Assembly (NCBI GenBank): GCA_037137755.1
Contig: JBAXJR010000026.1
Span: 1-33,320, forward strand
Reading direction: 5' to 3'
Source: Methanomicrobiales archaeon
Lineage (GTDB): Archaea > Halobacteriota > Methanomicrobia > Methanomicrobiales > Methanospirillaceae
DNA length: 33,320 nt
The notes under the pieces are model-generated. The model searched no databases and had not been told where the DNA came from. It was given only the letters and a program-made list of their open reading frames with translations. The position numbers were made by a program, and so were the translations under genes. Below, in pieces: positions 3,214 to 30,669 of this stretch. Numbering within the stretch: position 1 is the stretch's first letter; each line of letters starts with the position of its first letter.

Positions 3214-3220
3214 TTTAGTC

Positions 3221-7398: not shown

Positions 7399-7471
7399 CG
7401 CATCACTATTATGATAGATTGGCAATGGCATAACGTTTCCCTTCTCTTTTTGTGTATGGGGTTTGTGGGGA

Positions 7472-7492
7472 CCCCTTTGTTTCCTCTGGAGA
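7472..7492 (-). promoter_or_regulatory. Origin recognition box (ORB) with G-string
   Basis: Minus strand reads TCTCCAGAGGAAACAAAGGGG, matching the archaeal ORB consensus TTCCAGTGGAAAC-N-GGGG. Confidence 0.88.
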
Positions 7493-7794
7493 GTTTTCCT
7501 GATTTCTGGTTCTTTCTCTGATGTTGCTGTTCCCAGATTTCCAATTACCTGCTTTTTTTACTTATGACACAAAAAAGCAGCAAAAAAAGTCTTCTCAAAA
7601 TCCCCTTCTTTACATATACTGATCTTATGAAACGTAGGATTTGTGAATATTCCATTCGTTGTTTTTTGTTCTTTGACCCTGTTGATTCTGTAGTGACAAT
7701 TGGTTATTTTGTTCTTTTGATTTTCGGATTTTTGCTTGTTTGTCCTTCTTTTTTTCTTTTATTTTTTATTCTGTAAAAAAAGTTTCAATTATAG

Positions 7795-7885
7795 CCTCTT
7801 ATTCTTATAGAAAGATATTTCGATATGTATATATATTATAATTTCAACAGTGTACAACAAGCTAAACTATTTTGTCTTTTTTATT
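7795..7885. other. Candidate DNA unwinding element
   Basis: Very AT-rich (gatatgtatatatattataattt), lies between the inverted ORBs, at the T-rich to A-rich strand switch. Boundaries approximate. Confidence 0.6.
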
Positions 7886-7906
7886 TCCCTTCTAGTAACT
7901 ATTCTA

Positions 7907-7934
7907 GTTTCCAATGGAAACCAGAGGGTCTGGG
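7907..7934 (+). promoter_or_regulatory. Origin recognition box (ORB)
   Basis: GTTTCCAATGGAAACCAGAGGGTCTGGG. Confidence 0.85.
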
Positions 7935-8007
7935 ATATGATACAGAATAAGGGTAATTTGGGGTGGTACCTGGAAACATTTCCTCCCAGAATAAAAAAGA
8001 ATGAAAA

Positions 8008-8018
8008 TCCATAGGAAA
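8008..8018 (+). promoter_or_regulatory. Degenerate mini-ORB
   Basis: TCCATAGGAAA; another half-site, ACCTGGAAAC, at ~7968-7977. Confidence 0.4.
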
Positions 8019-8715
8019 ATCAGTTCGTGTGGAGAAATCGGAAAACTTCCAGAAAAACACCCAGGCAAAATGAAAAAAAGATTCAGCAACCACACAAAAT
8101 AAAAGAAAACATCAATGAAAGGAGAAAAACACCACAAATAAGGAAGATTCATGGTAATGGGACTCCCTCATAACAGAGGATTAAAAAAACTCTCCATTTA
8201 TGGATCGTTAGTCACCGGCGATCAACGATAAAGAAAATGAACCGATCACAGGAGAGCAAAAACAATCAACAAACGAGATCCTGATATGTTTCCATTAATC
8301 CGGGAAAATGGGAAAAAGAAGGCCAGATTTGAATACAGAGAAAAAAAGGCCCTGATTTTTCCTATGCCTTATTTCTCCAGCTTATAAAACAGAATCGAAA
8401 GAGAACAATGTATACAAGCACAAAAAGAAAGGGAAAATATTTCCAAAAACACGGGTTAGAAACACTATCCAGAGGTATCAAGATCCTAGAATCAATCAAT
8501 TGCTTCTGTTTGCATTTTTAACCGGTAACCGGGAAATACCCAATAAAATGGAATGGACTATTCAGTTGCGCTCCTTCCATCCAGAAAAGGTATCAGATAT
8601 CATCCATATTTATTATCATAAACAATTTCTGGATACGAGGGACTGGTTCTTCCACTGTTCAATAGAATCGACTATTTGGAGTGTAAAACTGTAATAAGTC
8701 TCCAAATATTCACCT

Positions 8716-8735
8716 TTCCAGTGGAAACCGTGGGG
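8716..8735 (+). promoter_or_regulatory. Origin recognition box (ORB) with G-string
   Basis: TTCCAGTGGAAACCGTGGGG, a near-perfect consensus match. Confidence 0.9.
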
Positions 8736-8789
8736 TGCATTCCGACGAAAAAAACGATCAGATTTTAAGCACGGATATCTAAGGTTTAG

Positions 8790-8802
8790 CTCCACTGGAA
8801 AC
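8790..8802 (+). promoter_or_regulatory. ORB core abutting the cdc6 start codon
   Basis: CTCCACTGGAAAC, 1 nt before ATG 8804. Confidence 0.75.
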
Positions 8803-8803
8803 C

Positions 8804-10087
8804 ATGCCCGAAGACCCCGATACATCAGTCGGACTTTTTAAAAAGTTCCTCGCAAACAATAAAATATTCAAAAACCGTGAGGTCCTCAGGCATTCCTATA
8901 GACCAAATATATTACCTCACAGGCGACCACAGATAGATCAGATCGCCTCAATACTCGCACCTGCCCTGAAAAACGAAACCCCCTCAAATATTCTTATTTA
9001 TGGCAAGACCGGGACTGGAAAAACCGCCTGTGTCCGTTATGTTGGGACAGAGCTTGAAAATGCCGGTTCCCAGATGGGGATGGTATGCCGGGTTGTACAC
9101 CTTAATTGTGAAGTTATCGATACACAGTACCGGATTCTCGCCCAGATCTCAAAGTATATCCTGGGACCGGATGAGACGGCAAGTGATAAACTGCGTGCGC
9201 ATATTCCGATGACCGGCTGGCCGACAGACCAGGTGTACCAGGAGTTAAAAAACCAGCTCGAATCGAGTGGCGGGGTCCTCATCATTATCCTGGATGAAAT
9301 TGATAAGCTGGTAAAAAAGAGTGGAGATGAGACCCTCTACAATCTCACCAGGATCAATACCGACCTGAAAAAGTCCAAGGTCAGCATGATTGGTATTTCG
9401 AACGATCTGAGTTTCAAGGATTTCCTTGATCCCCGTGTACTATCTTCGCTCAGCGAGGAAGAACTGGTTTTCCCCCCTTACAATGCCCCCCAACTTGTTG
9501 ATATCCTTCAGCAGCGTGCGGAATCCTCCTTTGTCGAGAATGCACTGGATGAAGGTGTAATCCCTCTCTGTTCCGCCCTTGCAGCCCAGGAACACGGGGA
9601 TGCCCGCAGGGCCCTCGATCTCCTGAGGGTTTCAGGGGAGCTGGCAGACAGGGCAGATACTGACCGGGTTACAGAGGAGCATGTAAAAATGGCCCAGGCC
9701 AAGATAGAAAGTGACAGTATGATTGAGTGCGTCTCAACGCTGCCCACCCAGAGTAAAGTAATCCTCTATTGTATGCTTCTTCTGGACCAGACAGGCCAGA
9801 ATATTTTTACGAGCGGCGAGGTGTCCCGGATCTACCAGGACATTGCCCCCAAAATTGATATCGATGTCCTGACCCACCGCAGAATAACTGACCTGATAAG
9901 CGAACTCAATATGCTGGGGGTTATCAATACCAGGGTTGTAAGCCGTGGGCGTTATGGAAGGACAAAAGAGATGTGGTTTGACGTAAATACCTATAAAATA
10001 CGGGACGTAATTCTGAACGACCCCAGGTTAAGTCAGCAGGGTCTTGCCCAGATTGATACTCACTGGGTAAAGAGCCTGTTCAGGTGA
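8804..10087 (+). CDS. cdc6: Orc1/Cdc6 replication initiator
   Basis: YGKTGTGKT Walker A, LDEID Walker B, DPRV.SSL, FPPYNA.QL, HGDARRALDLLR and C-terminal wHTH with SRGRYGRT. Confidence 0.97.
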   Translation: MPEDPDTSVGLFKKFLANNKIFKNREVLRHSYRPNILPHRRPQIDQIASILAPALKNETPSNILIYGKTGTGKTACVRYVGTELENAGSQMGMVCRVVHLNCEVIDTQYRILAQISKYILGPDETASDKLRAHIPMTGWPTDQVYQELKNQLESSGGVLIIILDEIDKLVKKSGDETLYNLTRINTDLKKSKVSMIGISNDLSFKDFLDPRVLSSLSEEELVFPPYNAPQLVDILQQRAESSFVENALDEGVIPLCSALAAQEHGDARRALDLLRVSGELADRADTDRVTEEHVKMAQAKIESDSMIECVSTLPTQSKVILYCMLLLDQTGQNIFTSGEVSRIYQDIAPKIDIDVLTHRRITDLISELNMLGVINTRVVSRGRYGRTKEMWFDVNTYKIRDVILNDPRLSQQGLAQIDTHWVKSLFR

Positions 10088-19103: not shown

Positions 19104-19952
19104 TCAATAGCCCTCAGCACCATTGCGGTTGTCCTGCGGACCCTGGTCCGGATTGAGCATGTGTTTTTCGATAACCCGGACAAGTTCAATCAGGTGTGCT
19201 TTCATGTTCTCCCCTTCCGGTAGGTCAATGACCGGGACTCCTGTCCGATCAGCGATCTCCATCGTCGGGTCATAAGGAAAAGCAAATAGTGTGGTGACCC
19301 CGGTTTCAGCCAGCCGTTTCGCGATCGGCACCGGGTCATCACCTGGTCGCAACTTGTTTATAACCCCGAAGAGTCGTGGAATCCCAAGGTCCTTTGCCAT
19401 TTTCGCGATCTGGAAGGCGGTTTCAACGGATTTAACACCGGGCTCGACGATAACCAGGAGGGCCTGGGCAGACCTGGTCGTACCTCTTCCAAGGTGCTCA
19501 ACTCCTGCCTCCATATCCATCACCAACAGGTCTGCCTCTCCTGAAAGGTGTGATACGACTCTTTTTGCAAGGGTATTCGCCGGGCAGTAACAACCGCCTC
19601 CACCGGTTTTGATCGCCCCGAGGACGAGAAGCCGTACCCCGTCTTTGCAGGTGACCCCGAACATATCGAGTACGTCATTTACTTTGGGGTTTATCCGGAA
19701 CACGACCCCCGAAGCCCCGGGCGGTGCCCCGGTCCGCTCTTCGATAAAATCCTCTCGTGAAATTAGTGGCGTTATTGTGTCCGGTTGCCCAGCTGCACCA
19801 CAACCGAGCGAGTACCAGAGGTTTGGGGAGGGGTCCATGTCGAGTGCGATTACCCGCATTCCCTTTCTTGCAAAAGTCCTGGCGAGCCCGGCGGCGATCG
19901 AAGTCTTTCCAACGCCCCCTTTTCCGGTGACTGCGAGGGTGATCATTACCAT
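19104..19952 (-). CDS. cooC: CooC/AcsF nickel-insertion ATPase for CODH/ACS
   Basis: GKGGVGKT, DMDPSPNL, F.INPKV.D, GGGCYCP metal motif and DMEAGVEHLGRGT. Start at ATG 19952 or 19946. Confidence 0.93.
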   Translation of the reverse strand: MVMITLAVTGKGGVGKTSIAAGLARTFARKGMRVIALDMDPSPNLWYSLGCGAAGQPDTITPLISREDFIEERTGAPPGASGVVFRINPKVNDVLDMFGVTCKDGVRLLVLGAIKTGGGGCYCPANTLAKRVVSHLSGEADLLVMDMEAGVEHLGRGTTRSAQALLVIVEPGVKSVETAFQIAKMAKDLGIPRLFGVINKLRPGDDPVPIAKRLAETGVTTLFAFPYDPTMEIADRTGVPVIDLPEGENMKAHLIELVRVIEKHMLNPDQGPQDNRNGAEGY

Positions 19953-20068
19953 GCTGTTTAGCGTTGCGGGAATATAACGACTCTCTGGCATCGGGTGATT
20001 TGTAGCTCTATGCCCGCCTGAGCAGCCATATGTTAATGGTATACCGGGAATGAAGTACAGGACATACA

Positions 20069-21700
20069 ATGGGCCGTATTACCATCATGCCTGAAGGAAA
20101 AAGCGGGCCCCTTCGGGAAGGGGAGACACTGCTATCCCATTTTCAACGGCTTGGTATCCATATTACTGTCGGATGCGGGGGTACCGGTGAGTGTGGTACC
20201 TGCCTGGTACGGGTACTGTCTGGTTCAGGGGCCCTCTCCCTACCGACCCCATCAGAGAAGAAATGGCTGGATACACCCGGGGGGCGTCTTGCCTGCCAGG
20301 CGATAGTGCTTGATGAAACAGCAGCTATTATTGTCGAAACGAGGGAGACGGGGGCATTTTCAATTGTTAGCGGGGGTATCCGGGCAGAATTTGAGAAAGG
20401 CCCGTTGATCGCGGTGAAGGATGTGAATGGGCGACGGGTGATTGTCCGGGATGACCACATAGTAGATTTCCTGACAGGGCGGTGCGCAGGGATATCTTTT
20501 GATGCCGGCACGACTACCCTCGTCATCCGGTGGTATGATCTTGAAGGCGACAGCTGTACCCCGCTTGCAACAGCCTCGATATTAAATCCACAGGGAATGT
20601 ACGGGGATAATGTGATAGACAGGGTAGGTTATGCGACAGCTTCCCCTGACGGGCAGTCCCGGATGGAGCAGGTACTGGCTGAGGCCATTCAACGCGTACT
20701 GTCATCAGGGCCTGTAAAACCTGCCGAAATATACGATATCGTCGTTGTCGGGAATACCGTAATGCGGGACCTGATCTGCGGTCTCCCTGTCCACTCCCTT
20801 GGACGATCCCCCTATGAATCATGCCATCCCGGACCGATCGAGCTCCCGGCAGTCGATAGGAAAATCATGATCCATCCTGCAGGGCACCTGTATGCACCAC
20901 CAGTCCTTGGCCAGTTCGTCGGTGCCGACATGCTTGCAGTCCTCCTCGCGGTGGGGATGCACCAGCGGGATGAGGTCATAATGGCCATCGATATTGGCAC
21001 GAATACCGAGATTGCGATTGGGAACCGTGAAAAAATCCTTGTTACGTCCTGTGCATCCGGGCCGGCATTTGAAGGTTCGGGTGTGAAGTGCGGGACCGGG
21101 GCAGTGAATGGTGCGATCCAGCAGGTCCGTATCCTGCCCGATGAATCTGTGTCCTGCTCGACAATCGGGAATGCATTGCCTACCGGTATCTGTGGTTCAG
21201 GACTGGTGGACACCCTGGCGGAATTGCTGGAACACGGGTTCATGAATGTGGCAGGAAAGTTCACCGGTGGAAGGCAACGCTTTGTCCTGGCGTACCGTGA
21301 TGAGCAACCTGGGTCCCCAATTTTTCTTGATGAAGAGGATATTGATGCCATTAAACTTGCAAAAGCAGCAATTTTTACCGGGGTCCGGACACTTCTTGGA
21401 AGATGGGGGGCAACTCCTGATCATCTCTCAAGGATATACCTTGCAGGGGCATTCGGGACATCAATTGATCCCATAAAAGCAGAACGGATCGGTATGATTC
21501 CATCATTGCCCCGCGATCGTGTGGTACAGGCAGGAAATGCGGCTATCGAGGGTGCCTCCATGATACTCCTCTCCCGTTTGAAACGATACGAAGCAGAGAA
21601 GATAGTGGCGATCACCGAACATGTCAGTCTTGAAAATGAACCCGGGTTCGAAGATATGTATATTGACGGGCTCGGGTTTGGTCCGATCGAAAACCCGTAA
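20069..21700 (+). CDS. ASKHA-family ATP-dependent reductive activator of corrinoid proteins (RACo/AcsV-like) with N-terminal [2Fe-2S] domain
   Basis: CGGTGECGTC...RLAC ferredoxin motif, DAGTTT, NPQ..YG.NVI.R, GNTVM, FVGAD, DIGTNTE, GPAFEG, GICGSG, LAGAFG and GNAA motifs. Confidence 0.92.
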   Translation: MGRITIMPEGKSGPLREGETLLSHFQRLGIHITVGCGGTGECGTCLVRVLSGSGALSLPTPSEKKWLDTPGGRLACQAIVLDETAAIIVETRETGAFSIVSGGIRAEFEKGPLIAVKDVNGRRVIVRDDHIVDFLTGRCAGISFDAGTTTLVIRWYDLEGDSCTPLATASILNPQGMYGDNVIDRVGYATASPDGQSRMEQVLAEAIQRVLSSGPVKPAEIYDIVVVGNTVMRDLICGLPVHSLGRSPYESCHPGPIELPAVDRKIMIHPAGHLYAPPVLGQFVGADMLAVLLAVGMHQRDEVIMAIDIGTNTEIAIGNREKILVTSCASGPAFEGSGVKCGTGAVNGAIQQVRILPDESVSCSTIGNALPTGICGSGLVDTLAELLEHGFMNVAGKFTGGRQRFVLAYRDEQPGSPIFLDEEDIDAIKLAKAAIFTGVRTLLGRWGATPDHLSRIYLAGAFGTSIDPIKAERIGMIPSLPRDRVVQAGNAAIEGASMILLSRLKRYEAEKIVAITEHVSLENEPGFEDMYIDGLGFGPIENP

Positions 21701-21735
21701 TTACAAATCACGATAATACAAGGGAATTTGCCATG

Positions 21736-22668
21736 CTACGCAAGTTTCACGGTGTTTTGATTAGTTATTACAATCCGGTGCTCTTCCTCCAATTCCCTGA
21801 GATACAGGTCAAATGCCCTCCTCGTTACACATCCTGAGGTTCCCTTGCCGGAAGACAGACCCACAACCTGCATGGCAAGGTCCTCAACCCCGATGTCCCC
21901 CGATCGATTGAGAACTGACAGGATGGCGTCTTTCGTCGAAGGGAGCCCGCAACTCTCGAACAATGCATCCCTGAACAAGTCCCCGGCCTCCTGCATCAAC
22001 GGGTAACGGGGGTCCATTTCAGCCAGGCAGTAGTTTTCAGCTTCATCGTTATGCTGTTCATCATAACAGAACCTGGATAGGAAATCCAGGTCGTGCGTAT
22101 CAACACCGGTAAGTTTTCCCGCGATGCAGGAGGCAGAGCCGCAGGGGGTATCTCTCTGAACTTCTACCTGGTTGATTCTCCCCGACCCTCGGTCAGTGGA
22201 TACTCGAAGAAGCGGCCTTCCAAAAAATTTCAGGAATTCGCCTATCAATGGATCATTGCTCCGGGAAAGACTGCAAAATGGCTCAGGAAATTCGACGTGA
22301 ACCCCCATTTCAGTCAGTTCATCAGTGATGGTCTTCCTGGCTTCCGGGATTGTGTCCCGGTCCTCAATGGGGTACAGAACTGAACGGACGTTGAGCCTCC
22401 TGGCAATACAGGGGATCAGATCGCTCAGGCGTCCGTGGACCCCGAGGACTATCAGCAGGTCCGCACCGGTCTCCGGAAAATCAGCCGGTATATAACGTTC
22501 CGGATTTTCGAAAAAGCTGTCCGGCCCCAGTGTATCTCCGCCATGGACCAGGACCTGTTCCGGCCTCATTTCGTATGCCCCGCTGACCTGGTCTCCCAGC
22601 CCGCCGAGGCTGATCGTATTGATTATCTGCTCCCCAAAGGGGCCCGAATAGAGAAAAAAGATCCTCAT
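21736..22668 (-). CDS. DUF166-family protein with putative C-terminal winged-helix extension
   Basis: YSGPFGEQ start, FPEPFCSL, FGRP, V.RDTPCGS and CLAEM motifs recalled for DUF166; ATG 22668 overlaps the upstream stop (ATGA). Confidence 0.72.
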   Translation of the reverse strand: MRIFFLYSGPFGEQIINTISLGGLGDQVSGAYEMRPEQVLVHGGDTLGPDSFFENPERYIPADFPETGADLLIVLGVHGRLSDLIPCIARRLNVRSVLYPIEDRDTIPEARKTITDELTEMGVHVEFPEPFCSLSRSNDPLIGEFLKFFGRPLLRVSTDRGSGRINQVEVQRDTPCGSASCIAGKLTGVDTHDLDFLSRFCYDEQHNDEAENYCLAEMDPRYPLMQEAGDLFRDALFESCGLPSTKDAILSVLNRSGDIGVEDLAMQVVGLSSGKGTSGCVTRRAFDLYLRELEEEHRIVITNQNTVKLA

Positions 22669-23330
22669 GACTTTTCCTGCATGAAGCCCCGGCATTTTCT
22701 CAGACCGTCAATACAATCCCTGCCGTACGCGTCTGCACCAATTGTCCTTGCAAACCCCTCGGTTACTGCGTGTCCTCCTATGATGACACGAACACGGTCC
22801 CTGAGTCCTGCGACCTCAAGTCCATGTAGTACCTCACTCATTGCCGGTAGCGTTGTGGTCAGCAGGGATGACATGGCGAGGATATCCGGTGTGTTATCCC
22901 GCACTGCCTCAACAAACTTTGCACAGGGGACATTGACACCGGTGTCGATGACAAAAAACCCGTCAGATTCAAGGGTAACGGCAAAGATAGTCTTTCCGAT
23001 ATCATGGACATCGCCTGCCACCGTGCCGATTACAACCACCCCTTTTCCTTCTTTTCCGGGAGGGAGAAGCGGTTGTATCAGTTCGATAGCCCGTTTCATG
23101 TTCCGGCCCGAAACAATCAGGTCAGAATTGAAATACCTCCGGAACCCGGGGTCTTCGTACCCCTTTCCGATCTCTTCAAGGCCAAGCTGTAGTTCGCCAA
23201 AAACCGCGAAGGGATCTATCCCGCTATCGAGTTGCAACTGACAGTACTCCCTGATTTTTGTGCCCTTAAAATCGAGCAGAACGCTAACCAGGTGTGAAAG
23301 TGCGGTTTCCCTGAGAGGATCATCTGCCAT
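22665..23330 (-). CDS. Stand-alone corrinoid (B12-binding) protein, MtaC/MttC-like
   Basis: Four-helix cap followed by GTVAGDVHDIGK (DxHxxG), SSLLTTT, IIGG and IGADAY motifs. Confidence 0.93.
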   Translation of the reverse strand: MADDPLRETALSHLVSVLLDFKGTKIREYCQLQLDSGIDPFAVFGELQLGLEEIGKGYEDPGFRRYFNSDLIVSGRNMKRAIELIQPLLPPGKEGKGVVVIGTVAGDVHDIGKTIFAVTLESDGFFVIDTGVNVPCAKFVEAVRDNTPDILAMSSLLTTTLPAMSEVLHGLEVAGLRDRVRVIIGGHAVTEGFARTIGADAYGRDCIDGLRKCRGFMQEKS

Positions 23331-23565
23331 ATGATATCCATCCAGGCTGGAAATACCAGATAAGTGTAAGAAATTCGGTTCGGTTGTTCGTCGACATGGT
23401 GTATCCTTTCATTGCTCCTGCATCCGGGTACTCCGGGCGATCGGAACATAATGTCAAATGGGCATATCCCGCGGCCCGAATATCCTCCGGGCTGAACTGG
23501 CATGGTCGCCAATGGTTTTATGCGACACTTCTGCCACCTGTTTGCGGGAAAACGATTGGCAACTC

Positions 23566-24999
23566 CTACCGGTAACTCCACCCCGGTTTGTGATCGATCC
23601 CTTCCCATTTCTCTCTGAGGTATCCGGGAATTCCTGCGGAATCACGCGGTCCCACCATGACATCCCATTTTATTGCATCCTCTATATCGCCTTTCAGGCG
23701 TGCAGCCAGACCCGGGATTATCAGGGTCCGGTGAGTGACTTTTTCTGAAATTCCCGATGAACTGATGACATCGGCTACTTTCTGGGCATTGAATTTTCTC
23801 CCCGCAACGGCTGAGTCAACGGAAAGGCCTTCGGTATCAGCCACCAGCAGGTAACAGTTGAGCTTTTCAATATCAGAGAGGACCGTGTAATACGTAAGGG
23901 CAAAGTTCGAGGTAATCAGTACGGGGCTTGTTACGGGGTCAGGGGTACCAAAGATCCGGAGCCCGGGTTCGACACTCACCGGTTTTCTCGGGTCATTATA
24001 CAGGTTATTGACAAGGACCACCAGGGGTAATGTCGACCACATCGACGGGTCCCTGATGATCATAAGATCCGCATACCGGATCGTCATCATTGACGCAAGG
24101 CAGGACTCCATCCAACGGATTACTTCGTCCTGCATGGAATTCTGCTGGTCCCAAAGGGTTACCGGCGACCCGATCAACGGGTGTCCCAGTAATGAATCAT
24201 CGCCGGAAATCGCGGAAGTCCTGATCATGGTCATATTGTCGAGGGAACCGCGGAGTGTTTCCCCAAATCCACAGCCCGGGTCGATGAGGAGATTTTTCAC
24301 ACCCCTGTCTGAAATCGCGGAGATAAGCGACCGTATTGTACCGACGTTTCCGTCGGCATGAACCGAAAGGGGGCATCCGGAACTGTTCGCCAGTTCGGCC
24401 ATCTGCTCCCAGTTTGACTCATCGGCGGCATAAATGAGTGGTCTTCTCTCTCCTGCCACCTCAAGTCCTGCTGCCATAATCACCGGGTCAGATGACCAGA
24501 GGACCAGAGGCATCTCAGTCTGCCCCATTACCATCTCCACAGTTTTTCGGAAGGTTCCGGCATCACCGGAAAGCGAACGGATAGTGATACCGTCGAGTTT
24601 CAGGGTATGGCCGATATATGGATAAGAAAACGAACTGGTATCCCTAACACGGCTGGCAATATCGTCTGCGGTCATCGTGTCATATACCGTGGTAAAGATC
24701 GCGGTCTTGTTAAAATAACGGAGCTCGTGCCGGTGCATGACCAGCTGGCCGCCAACCCTGATCTCCTGTTCACCCCGGCCGATCATGACCTCTTTTACCG
24801 GTGGGGCGAGGAGTGCCTCAAGTTTTTCGAGATTGACCTGGAATTTCGGGTCTGTAAGCGGAGGACACTGGGCCAGTGCCAGGCCACGCTCGCAGAGCTG
24901 AACGGCGAATCCCATGCAGGTCTTCGGGATGCACTCCCCACAGTTGGTACGGGGAAGGAGCGGGTAAAGATTCATCGGGCCTAGCTTTTTCTTCGTCAT
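23566..24999 (-). CDS. cdhE: ACDS complex gamma subunit (corrinoid Fe-S protein, large)
   Basis: LPRTNCGEC-x4-C-x16-CP [4Fe-4S] motif, YNDPRKP, T.NFALTYYTV, IIPGLAA and VGPRDS. Confidence 0.96.
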   Translation of the reverse strand: MTKKKLGPMNLYPLLPRTNCGECIPKTCMGFAVQLCERGLALAQCPPLTDPKFQVNLEKLEALLAPPVKEVMIGRGEQEIRVGGQLVMHRHELRYFNKTAIFTTVYDTMTADDIASRVRDTSSFSYPYIGHTLKLDGITIRSLSGDAGTFRKTVEMVMGQTEMPLVLWSSDPVIMAAGLEVAGERRPLIYAADESNWEQMAELANSSGCPLSVHADGNVGTIRSLISAISDRGVKNLLIDPGCGFGETLRGSLDNMTMIRTSAISGDDSLLGHPLIGSPVTLWDQQNSMQDEVIRWMESCLASMMTIRYADLMIIRDPSMWSTLPLVVLVNNLYNDPRKPVSVEPGLRIFGTPDPVTSPVLITSNFALTYYTVLSDIEKLNCYLLVADTEGLSVDSAVAGRKFNAQKVADVISSSGISEKVTHRTLIIPGLAARLKGDIEDAIKWDVMVGPRDSAGIPGYLREKWEGIDHKPGWSYR

Positions 25000-25010
25000 C
25001 CTGGTTCCTC

Positions 25011-26186
25011 CTAATGCCCCACCCCGATGAAATCAGGAAATGTCGGGGGGTTTATTCCATCTGCAAGCCACCCGACGATGTCCTCAATGGTCCTTGCCCC
25101 CCCCGGGTGGACCATGATAAACAGGTCAATACCTGCAAGAAGGAATGCAAGGGCCCCGGTAGTCTCCCACAACGGGCCCCGGTACTCACGTGGTCCCAGT
25201 TCGGGATCCCGTTTCCAGGCCTCACGTGCGCCCCACGAATTTGCAGTCCCTGAAGCCATCGGGCACTGGAGCTCCTTATCGCCCATCAGGCCTGCATAAC
25301 GTATGCGTTCCATTACCGAGAACGAGTACTCAAGTCCGTATCCCAGCGCCGCAGATGTCGGGTCCATGATGATCTGGTCGGGGGGCAGGTAGCCCATCAG
25401 CTTCCGGTTCAGCTCCTTGGCCTGGTTGATATCGATCGGGCTCCACGCGAGGACAATATGGTTAAATTCCTGGGCAGCCTTTGCCACTGGTTCCCACATG
25501 CTCATGGTGGCTGATGAGAGAAGGATCCGTTCCCCGGCACATACTTCAGCTATTTTCGGGAGGAGTTTTGCATCTTTTTCAGGATTTCCCGACCCTCCGA
25601 TGATGAGTGGTACATCCACTGCCTGGAGGAGGTCCTCCACGAGGCTGACGGCACGCTTTACGGGTGTATCCTTGAGGTACGGGTCCGTGCTGATCAGGTC
25701 AAGGTCGATTAAGTCAGCACCATAACGGTCAACCCAGGCCTTTGCCCAGGCACAGGGATCCTCAAGTGCGTCTCCGAACGACTCTTTGACCGGCCCCGGG
25801 AGTGGCGGGACAATATCGAAAACACTCCCGGCGACCACGGGGGAATGGAGGTCTGTCCCCTCGAACAGGTGGAATGGTGGTGTCGAGGCCCCACCGATGG
25901 TCACCGATTTTACCCGGCTCCCACCGTCTCCCCTGGTTGAGCCCAGGATTACTTCCCTTATTTTCCCCGGGTATGACCGGACCGGTGGTGTATACCCGAT
26001 ATCAACAAGCCCGGGCAATGGTGCCAGCAACGGCATCTGCCCGCCCAACGCCGGGAACCCTGAGAGATCTGATAAAGAAATCGTAAGTTCCTTTGCGGTC
26101 AGGGTGACTCCTTCCAGTTCTAATTCGCCATCCCCCGCAAGGAGTTTAATCAGGCTCCGGATCAGTGCGTCCTGCCCGTTTTCCAT
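25011..26186 (-). CDS. cdhD: ACDS complex delta subunit (corrinoid Fe-S protein, small)
   Basis: ISTDP, VDVPLIIGGSGNPEKD, MDPTSAALGYGLEY, NSWGAREAW and RGPLWE motifs. Confidence 0.96.
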   Translation of the reverse strand: MENGQDALIRSLIKLLAGDGELELEGVTLTAKELTISLSDLSGFPALGGQMPLLAPLPGLVDIGYTPPVRSYPGKIREVILGSTRGDGGSRVKSVTIGGASTPPFHLFEGTDLHSPVVAGSVFDIVPPLPGPVKESFGDALEDPCAWAKAWVDRYGADLIDLDLISTDPYLKDTPVKRAVSLVEDLLQAVDVPLIIGGSGNPEKDAKLLPKIAEVCAGERILLSSATMSMWEPVAKAAQEFNHIVLAWSPIDINQAKELNRKLMGYLPPDQIIMDPTSAALGYGLEYSFSVMERIRYAGLMGDKELQCPMASGTANSWGAREAWKRDPELGPREYRGPLWETTGALAFLLAGIDLFIMVHPGGARTIEDIVGWLADGINPPTFPDFIGVGH

Positions 26187-27569
26187 TTATTCCCTCCCTT
26201 TTCGTACAAAGATCCGGTCCGCATGGAGCCGGATATTATGAAATGTTATCGAGACCCCGGCCCCCGACCCTGATGGTAAAGGTCGGCTGTCCCGTGAACT
26301 GTCCGCAACGGTCCCGACAGAGTCGGAGATGGTTAATTCAGCAGTTCCTGTCCGGGCAAGGATTGGATGATGGTGTGCCTGTAGGAACCCCATCATCTCA
26401 TCCACGGACGTTACGTCCTTTTCGGTCGCTATCTGATCGTACAGGTCGGCCGGGATAAATGCCTTCAGTTTCTCCCGCACATCCGCAGGGATCCATACGA
26501 TCCGCCCCCATCCGCCGCTCGCCCGCAGGAACCGGGGAGACCTCATATACTCGAAAGAGAGCCCGTGAAAACCATCCACCTGCCTCCCGCCACCTGTTGA
26601 GTCCGCAATGGAGCCGAAGCTCAGTCCCGTGGGAGTCACACCCCGGAAGTCCCGGTTTACAATCCCAAGCCCATCGCATTCAGGGACATAAAATGTCGTA
26701 CATTCAAAGCAACCGCAGGATGTATGGGGATAGCCAAATGCCGTATACAGCTGGACTCTTGCAACATCAGACAGGGATTTTTCCTTAACAACACGGTTTA
26801 CTCCTTCATATTCCCCGGTTTCGGGATCGATGCAGATACCCTTCTGGATCTCATAGATCGGGCCTCTCGGGTCAACCCTTGAAGCAGCCCGCCCGTCAAG
26901 CCAGCTGATCGCCCCGCAGTTGGCGTACCGTTCCGGCGTGATCACACAGACGTGGGAAGGTGCAAAGGACTGGCAGAGTGAACATCCATAGAAAACATCC
27001 ACGTCCTCATCGGTCATTCCCCGGGTCCTTGCGTCGCGTTCCTCGTAAGTCTGGACCGCTACGGCATGCCATCGGTGCACAAGCGCCGGATCGGTGATCA
27101 ACGTCACACTTATACGGTCGATAATCGGGAGAGCACTCCGGAAAAGCCTGATCAGCACCGTCCCGACATGACTGAGCGTAAGGCCCCGGGCGACCGCCTT
27201 TTTATCAACCCGAAGCCAGATCCCGTCCCTCTGGTTGAGGTGCATGAACCCCTCGATCCAGTTACAGAAGTCGTGGATCCGACGTTCCATGACCGCTTCC
27301 ATGTCCCCCTCCAGCTGGGCCCCGGCAACCTCCACGCATATGCCAAAAGGGATAGCTCCGCCTACAGCCATCTCGGAGAGATCGGGACCAAGCACTTTTA
27401 CCTCTCCGTCATTGACCTCCTCCGGTTTTTTCACCCTGAGTATCTCAAATTTTTCCTGTACCTGAGGGCCCCCCAGCTCGACATGCATCGTCTGTTTCCG
27501 GATGCGTTCCCCTTCATATACAACCCCGATTTCGACAGGGATATCGGAGAACATTCCATCGGTTGTCAT
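26187..27569 (-). CDS. cdhC: ACDS complex beta subunit (acetyl-CoA synthase)
   Basis: YEGERIR, EGFMHLNQR, FYGCSLCQSFAPSHVC and PHTSCGCFE A-cluster ligands; ATG 27569 overlaps the cdhB stop. Confidence 0.96.
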   Translation of the reverse strand: MTTDGMFSDIPVEIGVVYEGERIRKQTMHVELGGPQVQEKFEILRVKKPEEVNDGEVKVLGPDLSEMAVGGAIPFGICVEVAGAQLEGDMEAVMERRIHDFCNWIEGFMHLNQRDGIWLRVDKKAVARGLTLSHVGTVLIRLFRSALPIIDRISVTLITDPALVHRWHAVAVQTYEERDARTRGMTDEDVDVFYGCSLCQSFAPSHVCVITPERYANCGAISWLDGRAASRVDPRGPIYEIQKGICIDPETGEYEGVNRVVKEKSLSDVARVQLYTAFGYPHTSCGCFECTTFYVPECDGLGIVNRDFRGVTPTGLSFGSIADSTGGGRQVDGFHGLSFEYMRSPRFLRASGGWGRIVWIPADVREKLKAFIPADLYDQIATEKDVTSVDEMMGFLQAHHHPILARTGTAELTISDSVGTVADSSRDSRPLPSGSGAGVSITFHNIRLHADRIFVRKGRE

Positions 27570-28111
27570 GTGCACCCTACCTCATCGGCGATTGTATTCA
27601 GGTGTGTTACCCACTCATCTCTGGTAAGGTTTGGAAATGAAAGCGTGCAATGTGGCTGGTACCGCTGATCAATTGAAATAAACCGGATACCTTTCGGAGC
27701 GAACGATTTCAGTCCTGACTGGAGCAGCCACCCCATAATGTAAGGGAAACCGATAAACAGGACAAGGTCGGGGTGCTGGTGGTCATTGCTGATGCTCCAG
27801 TCCGGATCGTTCAGCCGTGACCCGATCTCCATTGTTGAAAGTGTAGCCGTTGGATTAAAGCCCCTTTTTCTGAACGCTGGGGCAGTGGACGGTGTCGTGA
27901 TAACTGGAATTTTTCCGGCATCTGCAATCCGGATAATGATCTCCACCGGATTTCCTGCGGTACTGGCCGGGACCTCTGCAAGGTGGGCTGCCACAATAAG
28001 CGGGTGAGTTGCTTTCTTCAACAGGGCTGCAATAACCGCTGGTTTGGTAACCACCGTTGACTGGGTGCTGCCGGGGACCTCGTAGCGCTGCCATGGTGTA
28101 TCGTAGGTCAC
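27566..28111 (-). CDS. cdhB: ACDS complex epsilon subunit
   Basis: PWQ..VPG, L.DPDW, DLVLFIG, LKSFAP, YQPH...SFPNL motifs; sits between the alpha and beta genes. Confidence 0.93.
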   Translation of the reverse strand: MTYDTPWQRYEVPGSTQSTVVTKPAVIAALLKKATHPLIVAAHLAEVPASTAGNPVEIIIRIADAGKIPVITTPSTAPAFRKRGFNPTATLSTMEIGSRLNDPDWSISNDHQHPDLVLFIGFPYIMGWLLQSGLKSFAPKGIRFISIDQRYQPHCTLSFPNLTRDEWVTHLNTIADEVGCT

Positions 28112-30459
28112 TCTACCCCACCCCCTTTTCGTACCAGTCGTGGTAGCAGTGTAGGGTCCGGGATACGGCCGTCACCTTCTTTCCAGTCTGTCTGGCGCAG
28201 GGCTTTCTGGATGTCCTCTTTCATCGCCACCGGAATATCCGCGGTTGTTCGCACGAACAGGTGCATATCGTCCGGCATAACCCCGAAAAACTTCCTGTGG
28301 AGATCGATGTAATGGTTCAGCTTGATAGACCTGCCCTTTGTCGTATCGCTTGGCCTCATGCAGAGTTTCGGGATGAGCACCATTGCCTCCTCGCGTGTCT
28401 CAGCGACGGCGAAAAGGTGCTCGGGAGTTGGAGCTGCGTAGACCCGCTCCCCTGTCCTCGCATCAATGACCTCCCAGTCCTCGTCATGGTCCTTACGGCC
28501 GAGGAGCATCCTCCGGTATTTTGCGCCATGGGGCCCGACGATGACGGGTATCCCGAGACGCCAGAACCCAGCTGCAATGGAAGATGCCTTCTGGGACATC
28601 GCACCCCATGCTATCCCGACAGCCCCGACACGGTTATGGACATAGTCTGCGATCTCTTCATAATTCGAATTCAGCTGCCTTCTTGCAAAAATGTTCGCGA
28701 TCTTAATCGCAGCCCCGGATATGTGGGCGTTTGAAACGCACGAACCGCAGTTGACGAGGCCCCCCGCATCGAAGGTCCCGGGATACGCTTCGTAGAGGCC
28801 CTGCCCGTCTTCCGTCTTATACATCCCGATTTGCATAGCGGCACATCCGGAGGTGGTCACGATATATCGTCTTTTTAAGAATTCTTCGGCGATAAAGCCC
28901 ACATCTTTCCATGAGCCCGGGTTGTTTGAGCACCCGACCATCCCGAGTACCCCTGGGACTTCACCCATCACAATCGGACCTCCGACTGCACGGATCTCGG
29001 TGTCCCGGATCGGCCCCCTGCCGCAGCGGACCCGGAACTTTTCCTTCCCCATTCGGATCCTTGACGCACCGAGGATCATCGTGTGGGGCATCAGGCCCTT
29101 CGCACAGACACCTTCGCCTTCACACCTCGTACAACCGATGCATGACTCGTACAATTCACCAAGAAGGCTCAGGTTTCCCTTTCCGGCAGCGGCGATGGCC
29201 TCTGCGAGGGGGAGATCATTGGGACATACCCTCCTGCAGTTGTCACACCCGCCGCAGGTTTTTGCGGCAGCGGCAATGGTTGCCTCGTCAGGAATTGCAC
29301 GGAATTTTTTCCTTTTCGGGAACATGACCGTTGCAAGGCGGACCGCCACCTCTCCCGCCTTAACAGGGTCAAGAATTGCCGCACCAGTACTTTTACCATT
29401 GATAATATCCCCAACGATGCTGTCGATCGGGTCATTTGTTCTGTCCGGGAGCCCCTGGAAATTTTTGCAACTTGTCGCTATAACCGGTGCATGTACCTTT
29501 TCAGCCTCAATTACAACATCTGTCCGGACACATTGCTCGTCGATTACGATGACATCTGCCCCCCCATAACGGATAAACCGTATCTGGTGAGAGAGTGGGC
29601 CGACGATCTTCGCCTGGTTATTGTATCGTGTCAGATCGAGGGCGGTACAGCATATCCCGGCAAGGTCGATAGCATCTTCAAGGCCATGGTCACGCATATA
29701 ATCCGTGATCTCAACTGAAGGGGCAACATTATGGCCAATGACCAGAATTGACGGTTTAGCGGGGTTCACACATCCGATGCCGATATCAACGAGTGCAGCC
29801 TCCGGGTCCCCTTTAGGAAAATTAAGTGAGGAGATCTGTGCGATGTCAGCAGCCTCCATCGCAACATGGTCGATCATCCCTGCATGGAAAACCTTGGACT
29901 CGAAATCAATATTGTTACCTTCCTGACCGGTATGACAGCAGGCAAGGAGCTGGGTGATCTCCTTCTCGCAATAATCCAGCACATCTTCAAGATCTCCAAG
30001 TGTGATCGGTTTGATCCCGGTTACCAGCCGGATATTCGGTGCTTCCAGGTTTACAGAGGTACCAATGTCAAGGAGGTGGTCACGGCCCGAGGTTTCAACC
30101 AGGCGTTCGAGAAGATGGCGTGCGTGACCTGTATGAGTTGCCGTCCCGATTGATGCCGAGAGAAGCACGATACGGGACTGCTGGGCCGCCATATCTATCC
30201 CACAGGCCCCGCGTTTCCCACGTGAAAGGTCGCACTTCCCCATGGTGCATAAGCAGCAAAGGTCACAAAACGGGAGATAATGGGGGGGATATTTCTTCAG
30301 GAGTTTATGGTCCCATTCCCGGAGATCCCCGATACCCGGCATACGCGTAGGGCCGGGCCGTTCCTCCCACGTCCTGATGATCCGCCCGATATCGAGTTCG
30401 ACCCCGTGTGCCCTGATATCGTCGCCAATCAATTCGTCGATTTTAACCCTTGCTTTCAT
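28108..30459 (-). CDS. cdhA: ACDS complex alpha subunit (CO dehydrogenase)
   Basis: CDLCCLCTMGKC, IGHNV, GICCT, DEQC, two ferredoxin-like Cys clusters, GCSN, SGCAA and CGSCVSNAH motifs. Start set at ATG 30459; the ORF extends to 30522. Confidence 0.96.
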   Translation of the reverse strand: MKARVKIDELIGDDIRAHGVELDIGRIIRTWEERPGPTRMPGIGDLREWDHKLLKKYPPHYLPFCDLCCLCTMGKCDLSRGKRGACGIDMAAQQSRIVLLSASIGTATHTGHARHLLERLVETSGRDHLLDIGTSVNLEAPNIRLVTGIKPITLGDLEDVLDYCEKEITQLLACCHTGQEGNNIDFESKVFHAGMIDHVAMEAADIAQISSLNFPKGDPEAALVDIGIGCVNPAKPSILVIGHNVAPSVEITDYMRDHGLEDAIDLAGICCTALDLTRYNNQAKIVGPLSHQIRFIRYGGADVIVIDEQCVRTDVVIEAEKVHAPVIATSCKNFQGLPDRTNDPIDSIVGDIINGKSTGAAILDPVKAGEVAVRLATVMFPKRKKFRAIPDEATIAAAAKTCGGCDNCRRVCPNDLPLAEAIAAAGKGNLSLLGELYESCIGCTRCEGEGVCAKGLMPHTMILGASRIRMGKEKFRVRCGRGPIRDTEIRAVGGPIVMGEVPGVLGMVGCSNNPGSWKDVGFIAEEFLKRRYIVTTSGCAAMQIGMYKTEDGQGLYEAYPGTFDAGGLVNCGSCVSNAHISGAAIKIANIFARRQLNSNYEEIADYVHNRVGAVGIAWGAMSQKASSIAAGFWRLGIPVIVGPHGAKYRRMLLGRKDHDEDWEVIDARTGERVYAAPTPEHLFAVAETREEAMVLIPKLCMRPSDTTKGRSIKLNHYIDLHRKFFGVMPDDMHLFVRTTADIPVAMKEDIQKALRQTDWKEGDGRIPDPTLLPRLVRKGGGVE

Positions 30460-30669
30460 TTCCGGTATTTTCCTCTCGTCTGGCTGGACATATAAATCAT
30501 GGGAAATACGCAATCTTAACACTTTGCCAACAGTGCATTTTCGGGCTCATTTTTAGATTTGAGTCCGGGGGATCGCATCTTTTGGGATTCATGCTTGAAA
30601 AAGTGTAAGAAAATTTTACCCCTTCTATCTTCTTTTAGTGTTCACTTACTATATTAGTATAATATTTTA

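Follow-up and report, generated by a model that had tools for sequence, protein, structure and literature searches.

A corrinoid protein, a long DUF166 protein and a short RACo-type activator linked to an archaeal acetyl-CoA decarbonylase/synthase operon

Gene content of the cdh-linked locus

The window, i.e. the entire 33,320-nt stretch of Methanomicrobiales DNA analysed here, encompasses cdhA (28108-30522; Pfam Prismane), cdhB (27566-28111; CO_dh), cdhC (26187-27575; CdhC and ACS_CODH_B_C), cdhD (25011-26186; CdhD) and cdhE (23566-24999; CdhD and FeS), all on the minus strand; the NCBIfam models of the gamma and delta subunits are matched above their cut-offs. As judged from these domain matches, cdhABCDE (23566..30522, minus strand) is an archaeal-type acetyl-CoA decarbonylase/synthase (ACDS) operon.

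Downstream of cdhE, on the same strand, lies a gene encoding a 221-aa predicted His-on corrinoid protein (22665..23330; PF02310, E 4.4e-23), designated here as CorP. A preliminary description of this DNA had placed the gene directly downstream of cdhE; strand and position were borne out, but a 235-nt spacer (23331..23565, minus strand), which is found in the genus, separates the two genes. The spacer contains a small upstream ORF (23320-23412) that stops 11 nt within CorP, and one RNA-library contig of low depth spans 23364-23600, taking in the end of cdhE (35 nt) along with the greater part of the spacer. CorP is followed by a gene for a long DUF166 protein (21736..22668, minus strand; PF02593, 103 bits, cut-off 24.4). 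The TGA stop of CorP overlaps the ATG of DUF166 at 22665-22668 (ATGA), which sets the DUF166 start and thus a protein of 310 aa, whereas the longest ORF would encode 319 aa.

Convergent with DUF166, at a distance of 35 nt, is a gene for a short RACo-type reductive activator of 543 aa (20069..21700, plus strand; Pfam Fer2, Raco_middle and RACo_C_ter). It is divergent from, and 122 nt apart from, a gene for a 280-aa CooC-type nickel-insertion ATPase (19104..19946, minus strand; Pfam CbiA/ParA-type) with GKGGVGKT and CYC motifs; the listed ORF extends over 19104-20069, and a start at the P-loop fits 19946. ORFs, Pfam matches and sequence thus agree with the preliminary description as regards the intact DxHxxG motif of CorP, the ATGA overlap and the divergent cooC (minus) and RACo (plus) genes.

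In the short RACo, a 2Fe-2S ferredoxin domain at the N-terminus precedes the middle and ASKHA ATPase domains. The protein is matched by the RACo of PDB 3zyy (E 1.7e-70), while its best NCBIfam match is AcsV-like and falls under the cut-off of that model. It had been designated a bacterial-type RACo; it is indeed a convergent ASKHA activator, but the RACo_linker domain (PF17650) is absent. The genome encodes a second, long RACo, which does have PF17650 and to which the short protein is 33% identical. This long RACo belongs to a second ACS cluster in the genome, of bacterial type.

Conservation of the linkage

Synteny searches located the module next to cdh genes in all 12 of the congeners covered, and likewise among other Methanomicrobiales, Bathyarchaeia, Hadarchaeales and Hecatellales, so that the linkage, whose conservation had been posed as a check, recurs across distant archaea. 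Fifteen loci were fetched from genomes in which DUF166 matched strongly, namely those of genera g4 and g20 and of 11 of the 12 congeners, and every one retained the order cdhABCDE-CorP-DUF166-RACo-CooC. A wider set of 48 loci covered Methanomicrobiales, Bathyarchaeia, Hadarchaeales and Hecatellales; many came from close kin and are not independent. In this set, CorP was directly upstream of long DUF166 in 41/44 assessable loci, a convergent RACo followed DUF166 in 30/36, and at least one cdh gene was present in 38/48. Exceptions were three CorP loci in which RACo is not adjacent (L074, L075 and L077), three assessable loci (L062, L065 and L066) plus the short locus L082 in which CorP is absent beside long DUF166, and the 17-kb locus L053, with no cdh gene within reach of the module.

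The 4-nt stop/start overlap of CorP and DUF166 was seen again in many lineages, CooC was kept adjoining RACo in syntenic loci, and, measured against the window's copies, sequence identities of the CorP, DUF166, RACo and Cdh proteins rise and fall together (r 0.89-0.98). As the arrangement is repeated across several archaeal lineages, it is more than chance. It could still be argued that the genes are neighbours through descent alone, with RACo and CooC being ordinary ACDS helpers: many loci stem from close relatives, and in 9/9 other Methanomicrobiales loci fetched, from which CorP and DUF166 are absent, a long RACo and CooC- and/or AcsF-like genes come after cdhABCDE. Such a lack of joint function is nevertheless very improbable, given that the CorP-DUF166-RACo linkage outlasts rearrangement of the surrounding gene order across phyla, that the translational coupling is conserved, and that the predicted contact of CorP with DUF166 came with clean controls (see below).

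The association with ACDS is not a property of DUF166 proteins at large. Outside these lineages, the 30 DUF166 loci that scored best in the phylum showed no cdh, CooC, CorP or RACo gene within 1.5 kb, indicating that the ACDS link is confined to certain DUF166 subfamilies.

The activators linked to the module also stand apart. The 28 RACos linked to the module all fall within 530-548 aa, and a tree separated them by a 100/100 branch from 10 long RACos, namely those located directly after cdhE or acsC. One Hadarchaeales genome searched has the short RACo only, and in two Bathyarchaeia genomes with CorP the sole RACo is about 610 aa long and located elsewhere. The client of the short RACo may simply be the CoFeSP of the cdh type concerned.

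Methyltransferase genes and the CorP-DUF166 pair

CorP carries the motifs GDVHDIGK (DxHxxG), SSLL and GG, and its profile matches PDB 1y80, 4jgi, 7xcn_M and 3ezx. The AlphaFold2 model (pLDDT 89.4) gave MttC, 4jgi, MetH and MtmC as best Foldseek matches. By profile and predicted fold, CorP combines a four-helix cap with a Rossmann B12 domain, is of the MtaC/MttC/MetH-Cob type and belongs to the methyl-carrier family. Residues C30 and C213 are invariant within the subfamily (24/24), and the protein falls under every NCBIfam equivalog cut-off.

As claimed before, the module comes without a methyltransferase gene: no MT1 or MT2 gene was found in the window, and no MT1, MT2 or MetE gene was found among 63 neighbour ORFs scanned (of 111 listed) at 18 non-Methanomicrobiales loci, where the neighbours are Wood-Ljungdahl genes. 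MtaB and MttB were not found in the genome, which is 90.6% complete. Its only URO-D/MtaA-like gene adjoins a different corrinoid protein; having a corrinoid neighbour of its own, this gene does not explain CorP.

These findings bear on the idea that CorP serves as a methyl shuttle linking ACDS (or methyl-H4MPT) to either a core methionine synthase or an external donor, DUF166 being a novel methyltransferase. The methyltransferase-cognate type of CorP, the linked reductive activator and the single core MetE gene in the genome are in keeping with it, as is the prediction by Price et al. 2021 (PMC7857596) that core methionine synthases receive their methyl groups from corrinoid proteins. However, the same study places these synthases in most methanogen orders, while most relatives searched lack the module, only 19/61 having a DUF166 protein that matches the window's at all. 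This weakens the previously suggested role in methionine synthesis and, together with the methyltransferase results above, makes such methyl transport improbable.

The long DUF166 protein is predicted (AlphaFold2 pLDDT 84.9) to begin with a Rossmann-like domain bearing a GPFGEQ loop and to end in a winged helix (residues 244-310), with Cys-bearing motifs at C132, C176, C214, C240 and C280. VIA-align comparison of the model returned a middling Z of 8-9 for the Rossmann-like part and about 9 for the winged helix, for which most top matches had an rmsd of 1.3-1.8 A over 54-63 residues. No methyltransferase fold was recognised in DUF166, nor was any related solved structure found. The window's protein represents a long, divergent subfamily marked by the winged helix and by additional conserved cysteines.

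The winged helix announced in the preliminary description is thus recovered in the model, but the regulatory role attached to it is doubtful. In such a role, CorP would sense corrinoid, redox state or CO, and DUF166 would bind DNA and control cdh expression. Weak HTH_20/MarR matches in a few orthologues, a singleton protein in which a HAMP sensor is fused to the C-terminal half of DUF166, and the location of the genome's two other corrinoid proteins among histidine kinases are consistent with this. Yet the domain has a pI <7 (acidic or neutral) in 20/24 orthologues, its putative recognition helix is acidic, in the Hadarchaeales copy L058 it is shortened to 47 aa, the short DUF166 paralogues found here have no winged helix, and a reductive activator would be unexpected for a sensor. 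The predicted CorP interface, moreover, lies outside the winged helix, and we regard regulation as highly unlikely.

That interface derives from a complex prediction, a check proposed beforehand, in which CorP and DUF166 reached a score of 0.65, compared with 0.00 for the best of three controls. The 0.65 mark is met by 58/80 solved complexes and 2/110 mismatched pairs, rates that apply only roughly because own-made alignments were used. Contact agreement between runs was at least 86% and partner pLDDT at least 85. Predicted contacts involve subfamily-invariant motifs of CorP at 19-22 (LLDF) and 63-79 (SDLIVSGRNMK), and of DUF166 at 9-14 (GPFGEQ) and 215-219, next to the invariant C214. Since no solved DUF166 relative turned up, the score is unlikely to reflect memory of a known complex. 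The modelling supports binding of CorP and DUF166 to each other.

Proposed role and relation to known systems

A DUF166 gene beside CODH/ACS was described in a 2024 preprint as needed for autotrophy of Methanococcus maripaludis (bioRxiv 10.1101/2024.03.05.583561). According to the preprint, the delta-duf166 strain does not fix CO2 and is complemented, and the fitness profile of the gene parallels those of cdh genes and cooC2 (cofitness r 0.94-0.99). The link between DUF166 and ACDS is hence already known, and the system is not undescribed in this respect; its corrinoid partner and dedicated RACo were not found in the literature searched. In the preprint, the M. maripaludis locus has no CorP, the word 'corrinoid' does not occur and no RACo is described at the locus.

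The pairing of that DUF166 with a CooC paralogue and its requirement for ACDS function would also suit a maturation role distinct from a catalytic shuttle, in which CorP would be a store or carrier of cobamide, while loading of apo-CdhE or replacement of damaged cofactor would fall to DUF166 together with CooC-type ATPases. Short DUF166 paralogues that immediately follow CooC and precede CorP in four Bathyarchaeia loci (L053, L060, L079 and L081), a cbiB gene a few kb from the module in the window's genus, and the predicted CorP-DUF166 binding point the same way. On the other hand, a dedicated RACo clade co-inherited with CorP suits a protein working as Co(I) better than a store, CorP retains the complete methyl-carrier signature and cap, and we know of no such escort for CoFeSP. 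We consider cofactor delivery unlikely.

The reading that we favour, and hold about as readily as we doubt it, is that CorP and long DUF166 form a two-protein complex, encoded by translationally coupled genes and co-inherited with archaeal cdhABCDE, CooC and a dedicated short RACo, that couples to ACDS. Its basis comprises gene content, conservation, the separate RACo clade, folds and the controlled binding prediction, and, from outside, the requirement of one DUF166 family member for CODH/ACS-dependent autotrophy described in the preprint. The trio of CorP, DUF166 and RACo probably services ACDS. The short RACo, using its 2Fe-2S centre and ATP, would reduce the Co(II) of CorP, and possibly that of CdhE, to Co(I), with CorP alternating between Co(I) and methyl-Co(III) as a carrier. 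DUF166 is predicted to contact the cap domain of CorP with two of its loops, the Gly-rich one and that around C214, and may be the partner enzyme coupling the corrinoid to ACDS. It would put or keep ACDS in a methyl-accepting active state, by priming or repair transfer of methyl groups or electrons to CoFeSP or the A-cluster side, and the module would not feed a separate pathway.

Among known systems, MtaBC, MttBC and MtmBC with MtaA/MtbA and RamA resemble the module in having a small His-on cap-plus-Rossmann corrinoid protein, an adjacent partner gene and a COG3894-type ATP-dependent activator; four-component O-demethylases (MT I, CP, MT II and activating enzyme) and Mto are also alike. In contrast to MtaBC, MttBC and MtmBC, the module has no TIM-barrel MT1 or URO-D-type MT2, its partner is a Rossmann-like DUF166 protein and its context is ACDS, not a methylotrophic pathway. 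CorP shares its fold and DxHxxG...SxL...GG signature with the MetH cobalamin-binding module, but stands alone, with invariant C30 and C213 and no fused substrate or reactivation domains. The RACo that acts with CoFeSP in Carboxydothermus hydrogenoformans (PDB 3zyy and 4c1n) and acetogen AcsV likewise have 2Fe-2S, middle and ASKHA domains and adjoin acetyl-CoA synthase genes, whereas the window's RACo, about 90 residues shorter and without PF17650, belongs to a separate clade travelling with CorP and DUF166; its client could be CorP, CdhE or both. Finally, MMP_RS05055 and CooC2 of M. maripaludis likewise combine a Pfam DUF166 protein and a CooC encoded next to ACDS genes, with ACDS-dependent CO2 fixation requiring MMP_RS05055 according to the preprint cited above; the window's protein is of the divergent long subfamily, and the two are compared at the level of the Pfam family.

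Gene order and conservation of the linkage

The window contains all five archaeal acetyl-CoA decarbonylase/synthase (ACDS) subunit genes in one operon on the minus strand, identified from six-frame ORFs and Pfam matches as cdhA (28108-30522), cdhB (27566-28111), cdhC (26187-27575), cdhD (25011-26186) and cdhE (23566-24999). A 235-nt spacer (23331-23565, same strand) separates cdhE from a minus-strand gene (22665-23330), recognised in the same manner, for a 221-aa B12-binding protein, here designated CorP. The CorP stop codon and the ATG of the next minus-strand gene overlap as ATGA (22665-22668) and, because its ATG sits in this overlap, the product, assigned by Pfam to the DUF166 family, is 310 aa long. 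Convergent with the DUF166 gene, at a gap of 35 nt, is a plus-strand gene (20069-21700) for a RACo-type activator with Fer2, Raco_middle and RACo_C_ter domains (Pfam), which is divergent from, and separated by 122 nt from, a gene (19104-19946) for a CooC-type ATPase, recognised by Pfam and by its GKGGVGKT and CYC motifs. This layout had been reported in the preliminary description, which was right in every structural point as judged by six-frame ORFs, Pfam, motifs and the ATGA overlap.

Furthermore, the linkage of CorP, DUF166 and RACo, which that description had reported from this single locus, was found to recur beyond the genus, in several archaeal lineages. A strong full-length DUF166 homologue is present in 12/12 congeners, in one further genus of the same family and, outside that family, in the two genomes of another genus; among 61 relatives, 19 gave DUF166 matches at E ≤0.001, three of these being weak paralogue matches. 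Within the limits of their contigs, all 15 loci fetched share the gene order cdhABCDE, CorP, DUF166, RACo and CooC. A set of 48 loci was obtained by a pattern scan in which each species was represented by one genome; they derive from Methanomicrobiales, Bathyarchaeia, Hadarchaeales, Hecatellales and one Nitrososphaeria-labelled record; counts based on them include close kin (nine loci are from the window's own genus) and do not represent independent events. CorP is encoded directly upstream of DUF166 in 41 of the 44 loci whose upstream sequence extends to at least 700 nt, and a short DUF166 paralogue is found in its place in L062, L065 and L066. Of the 36 loci for which at least 1.7 kb of downstream sequence was available, 30 have a convergent RACo gene within 1.6 kb; the other six comprise three loci in which CorP is absent or not assessable (L062, L066 and L086) and three in which it is present (L074, L075 and L077). 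At least one cdh gene was observed in 38/48 loci; the remaining ten are mostly short, and L053, which has no cdh gene within its 17 kb, is a true exception. The surroundings of this module (i.e. CorP, the long DUF166 protein and RACo, with CooC, beside the ACDS genes) vary by lineage; in Hadarchaeales and some Bathyarchaeia, for example, cdh has a divergent or convergent orientation. Despite such differences in gene order, CorP and DUF166 remain paired and keep their 4-nt overlap. There is good support for the view that the module accompanies one archaeal ACDS cluster type as a conserved accessory inherited along with it. In a set of 151 genomes from the phylum, none of the 30 DUF166 loci with the highest scores had a cdh, CooC, CorP or RACo gene within about 1.5 kb, and the DUF166 family as a whole is not ACDS-linked.

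Additional neighbouring genes were observed at individual loci. In the Bathyarchaeia loci L073 and L078, DUF3786 is located ahead of the CooC-CorP-DUF166 row, on its upstream side, and MTHFR-like and DUF5981 genes occupy this position in L071 and L078, the two features coinciding only in L078. The module adjoins genes for Mtd, F420 ligase and ADP-forming acetyl-CoA synthetase in L075 and L077, and a NikR gene is close to it in L067.

Searching the entire window against Rfam with gathering thresholds returned no matches, and therefore no riboswitch or known RNA is recognised in the cdhE-CorP spacer. A small minus-strand ORF upstream of CorP (23320-23412; 30 aa, or 25 aa from its second ATG) ends 11 nt inside CorP and is open in the window and in 8/9 same-genus loci (L040-L048, with L047 misregistered). 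In view of its weak amino acid conservation and its absence from L049-L051, it is not claimed as a gene. Four metatranscriptome runs from one study yielded short contigs (depth 2.4-9) matching parts of cooC, RACo, DUF166, CorP, the spacer and cdhE, all 100% identical to the window except for one letter in one contig. One of them bridges the CorP/DUF166 junction (22600-22772) and another spans the cdhE end and most of the spacer (23364-23600). These contigs reveal neither strand nor the continuity of a single transcript and may include DNA carry-over; they hint, no more, that the genes are expressed and the spacer is read through, and stretches without coverage carry no information. The cdhE-CorP gap in other lineages is only about 10-70 nt, a distance that would fit co-transcription there.

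Elsewhere in the window, an AT-rich (GC about 0.38), non-coding stretch of 1.4 kb (7431-8804) lies upstream of cdc6/orc1 (8804-10087) and contains TCCAnTGGAAACC three times (at 7910, 8717 and 8791); it looks like a putative replication origin with ORB-like boxes.

CorP, DUF166 and their predicted complex

CorP possesses the complete cobalamin signature DxHxxG ... SxL ... GG (as GDVHDIGK, SSLL and IIGGHAV), of which residues D107, H109, G112, S154, L156, G185 and G186 are invariant in 24/24 orthologues. The AF2 model (pLDDT 89.4) consists of a four-helix cap followed by a five-stranded α/β Rossmann-like B12 domain, and its best Foldseek matches were MttC (7xcn, E 1.9e-16), 4jgi, MetH and MtmC (3ezx; TM 0.82, rmsd 2.2 Å over 205 columns). 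A profile of the 24 orthologues matched PDB 1y80, 4jgi, MttC (7xcn_M), MtmC (3ezx) and MetH. Judged by signature and model, CorP is a full methyltransferase-type (MtaC/MttC/MetH, His-on) corrinoid protein, for which corrinoid binding is predicted. It falls in no substrate-specific NCBIfam equivalog (MtgC, MtbC, MtaC and others), with all scores below the cut-offs (best scores: MtgC_2, 160.8 bits, cut-off 370; pyl_corrinoid, 139.3 bits, cut-off 215.3). Its subfamily has the invariant motifs LLDFxG and SDLIVSGxNMK and two cysteines, C30 and C213, that are invariant throughout. Members of this subfamily, together with long DUF166, were also encountered in two NCBI records named [Eubacterium] cellulosolvens, a rumen bacterium label (P0104 and P0418); their nearest cluster members are from Bathyarchaeota, and they are probably archaeal contigs inside a bacterial assembly.

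The DUF166 protein scores 103.2-103.3 bits against PF02593 (gathering cut-off 24.4), which is matched by all 24 long-DUF166 orthologues. The long form represents a small subfamily (only nine representative clusters at E ≤1e-30) on one side of a tree branch with support 88/91. Its motifs FPxPFC, (S/T)PCG and CLA(E/S) are common to short family members, i.e. canonical paralogues of 222-247 aa with FPxPFC, SPCG and CLAS and without the C-terminal winged helix of the long form. Such short paralogues are located upstream of CorP in four Bathyarchaeia loci (L053, L060, L079 and L081), directly after CooC in L079 and L081. A single ENA sequence (P0129, 563 aa) combines a HAMP/sensor N-terminus with residues 158-303 (the C-terminal half) of long DUF166 and is either a true signalling fusion or an assembly chimera; as the only such case, it was considered too thin to use.

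Among the cysteines of DUF166, C132, C214 and C280 are conserved in 24/24 orthologues, C240 in 22/24 and C176 in 19/24. The protein is not a member of the DfsP selenoprotein subfamily (NF041372; 30.6 bits, cut-off 200). The NCBIfam model is named 'DUF166 family (seleno)protein DfsP', and DUF166 appears among the prokaryotic selenoprotein families in the accessible text of a selenoprotein review (PMC9312934); name and listing together hint at a redox-active or nucleophilic cysteine in DUF166.

The model of DUF166 is confident (pLDDT 84.9), with the best-conserved motif, ENYCLAEMDP..PLMQEAGD, lying partly within a low-confidence loop. Foldseek retrieved nothing from the PDB at E ≤0.001, and the ESM Atlas returned just one DUF166 cluster (0.89) and no structure. 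Using VIA-align, residues 1-175 were recognised as a Rossmann-like domain (Z 8-9, middling by the tool's own warning) and likened to the NAD-binding domain of hydroxyacid dehydrogenases and the CoA-binding domain of ADP-forming acyl-CoA synthetases. A weak Pfam scan of the 24 orthologues (E ≤5) revealed no recurring CoA_binding or NAD-binding family, and the apparent likeness to CoA-binding domains is a structural lead only. Residues 244-310 adopt a predicted winged-helix fold (VIA-align Z 8.3-9.5, rmsd 1.1-3.0 Å), matching MarR-, IclR- and ArsR-type domains, the Rpa2 winged helix and the cullin WHB domain, with the helix sequence ...DLYLxELxxEG. This winged helix is acidic or neutral (pI <7) in 20/24 orthologues and is cut short in the Hadarchaeales copy, L058, which would tend to argue against a DNA-binding role. 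A function of the whole module as a sensor or regulator, to which such a fold might lend itself, is ranked fourth among the readings considered and appears very improbable.

Complex prediction, for which two 24-row alignments (CorP and DUF166) served as input, gave a score of 0.65 for the pair (runs 0.57, 0.68 and 0.65), compared with 0.00 for the best of three controls. This mark is reached by 58/80 solved complexes and by 2/110 mismatched pairs, counts that hold roughly here, since our own alignments were used. The runs share at least 86% of contacts, with a partner pLDDT of at least 85. On CorP, the predicted interface comprises residues 19-22 and 63-79 (cap-domain motifs); on DUF166, it comprises residues 9-14 (the GPFGEQ loop), 17, 35-42, 76-78, 102-106, 208-209 and 215-219 (next to C214), and these are subfamily-invariant positions of both proteins. 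The model thereby supports binding between CorP and DUF166, the latter having been proposed in the preliminary description as the missing partner, and the two probably form a physical complex. In modules of the MetH type, the reactive face of the cofactor lies beneath the cap. A partner gripping the CorP cap, as modelled, is what one would expect of an enzyme acting on the bound corrinoid. Alternatively, the module might act as a cofactor escort, a reading that we rank second and regard as rather unlikely.

Activators, cdh cluster types and genomic background

The RACo of the window matches PF00111 (2Fe-2S ferredoxin), PF17651 (middle) and PF14574 (ASKHA ATPase) over their cut-offs, and PDB 3zyy at E 1.7e-70; by Pfam, the linker domain PF17650 is absent from it and present in a second, 638-aa RACo of the same genome. 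RACos beside CorP-DUF166 are all 530-548 aa. In a maximum-likelihood tree, from which three rows were left out (two mis-delimited, one truncated), 28 short and 10 long RACos occupy opposite sides of a 100/100 branch, the groups having been set by length and the length split coinciding with the choice of loci. All five genomes reached through loci encode a RACo: the Hadarchaeales genome has the short form only, and two Bathyarchaeia genomes that have CorP without an adjoining RACo carry one of about 610 aa elsewhere. Taken together, lengths, tree and survey indicate that the short RACo therefore travels with CorP, while its client may also be, or may instead be, CdhE. CooC contains a deviant Walker A P-loop (GKGGVGKT) and a CYC (CXC) metal motif, with CbiA/ParA-type Pfam matches; none of the CooC-specific NCBIfam models matched it.

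Among the 61 relatives, CdhC was found in 43 and RACo in 44, with many genomes possessing two copies of each. Methanomicrobiales without long DUF166 were shown to have cdhABCDE followed by a long RACo (602-630 aa) in 9/9 loci fetched, with CooC- and/or AcsF-like genes present and CorP and DUF166 absent. A quick CdhC tree places the 18 module-linked rows from Methanomicrobiales together with those of Bathyarchaeia/Hecatellales (SH-aLRT 99), apart from nine Methanomicrobiales CdhC without the module, which suggests that the whole cdh cluster may have moved between phyla. The module is in this sense a marker of a distinct, apparently laterally shared cdh cluster type that connects some Methanomicrobiales to Bathyarchaeia. 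Among relatives, by contrast with the module, the long CdhC type is found widely. The genome of the window also carries a second, bacterial-type ACS cluster (L088, contig C6, 8788-16911), in the order AcsB-like (678 aa), AcsD, AcsC, the 638-aa RACo with linker domain, a 344-aa protein and an AcsF/CooC-like ATPase. The cluster has no adjoining CODH gene, and its 344-aa protein, which has no Pfam match, could be the methyltransferase that it otherwise lacks.

The assembly to which the window belongs (as contig C26) is 2.64 Mb and 90.6% complete, and encodes McrA, a single DUF166 protein and three B12-binding proteins over the Pfam cut-off, CorP included. The other two are encoded among PAS/GAF/PocR histidine kinases (contig C20, 3767-5526; contig C50, locus coordinates 7803-8876), one being directly followed by the only URO-D/MtaA-like gene of the genome and the other being fused to a phycobilisome-like domain; these loci look like signalling rather than catabolic systems. 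MtrH was absent from the assembly search and was found in 9/12 congeners, and the sole MtrA match is a stand-alone paralogue. Given the congeners and the incomplete assembly, loss of Mtr was set aside, and the missing MtrH is read as an assembly gap. The MtrA-like paralogue (contig C23, locus coordinates 2145-6427) lies outside any mtr operon, in an arsenic-resistance-like row of genes for an ArsP permease, a C_GCAxxG_C_C protein, an Acr3/SBF transporter, a low-molecular-weight phosphatase (ArsC-like), the MtrA-like protein and PadR.

No cognate gene for a substrate-specific methyltransferase (MT1; MtaB/MttB/MtmB) or an MtaA-type methyltransferase (MT2) was found next to CorP in the window, nor any such gene near the module among 63 scanned ORFs from 18 related loci. 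The preliminary description had raised the question of such genes elsewhere in the genome: neither MtaB nor MttB was found in the 90.6% complete assembly, and one core MetE gene and the URO-D/MtaA-like gene beside another corrinoid protein are present. These results bear on the possibility that the module shunts methyl groups to methionine or from external donors. According to the available text of Price et al. (2021, PMC7857596), core methionine synthases are predicted to take methyl groups from corrinoid proteins and occur in most methanogen orders, yet most relatives searched lack the module. Because of this, and because no MT1, MT2 or MetE gene accompanies the module, a methyl shunt is ranked third and considered improbable.

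Proposed role and relation to known systems

The module is real and conserved, and the literature anticipates only part of it. In the accessible text of a preprint on Methanococcus maripaludis (10.1101/2024.03.05.583561), the DUF166 gene MMP_RS05055 is located with cooC2, divergent from the CODH/ACS operon; it is cofit with cdh genes in RB-TnSeq (r 0.94-0.99), and its deletion abolishes CO2 fixation and is complemented in trans. Only 'an accessory role' is proposed there for its product, with corrinoid nowhere mentioned. In the openly readable literature searched, DUF166 is named in four papers, of which this preprint is the only one of functional relevance; no account was found of cdh genes accompanied by DUF166, a corrinoid protein and RACo, and work on CODH/ACS accessory genes did not describe the module.

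By analogy with corrinoid methyltransferase systems, and given the dedicated activator, CorP would work through Co(I)/methyl-Co(III), and DUF166 would be its partner enzyme, acting on or for ACDS. The reading ranked first, to which we give about an even chance with the general claim included, is that the module would prime or repair the ACDS methyl chain. A more specific version is offered tentatively, as possible rather than probable: DUF166 might represent a new class of corrinoid-protein partner enzyme that primes or repairs the nickel/corrinoid methyl-transfer chain of ACDS. It might combine a domain of Rossmann-like or CoA-binding-like type with a centre formed by Cys (elsewhere Sec) and, again tentatively, might act together with a free corrinoid protein of the His-on type and an ATP-dependent activator dedicated to the system.

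ACDS is among the oldest carbon-fixing machines. The maturation and upkeep of its archaeal form are poorly known, one DUF166 gene being indispensable with no mechanism proposed. If true, the more specific version would provide a mechanism for the unexplained DUF166 requirement in methanogen autotrophy, and would constitute a previously unrecognised step of the Wood-Ljungdahl pathway in Bathyarchaeia, Hadarchaeales and some methanogens. Through the module, the DUF166 family acquires a corrinoid protein as its concrete predicted partner, along with a dedicated activator and a defined interface, and an open genetic observation on DUF166 becomes testable biochemistry. With DUF166 as a partner protein of unassigned fold, the module resembles in its composition ACDS accessory factors and corrinoid-protein systems with a COG3894 activator.
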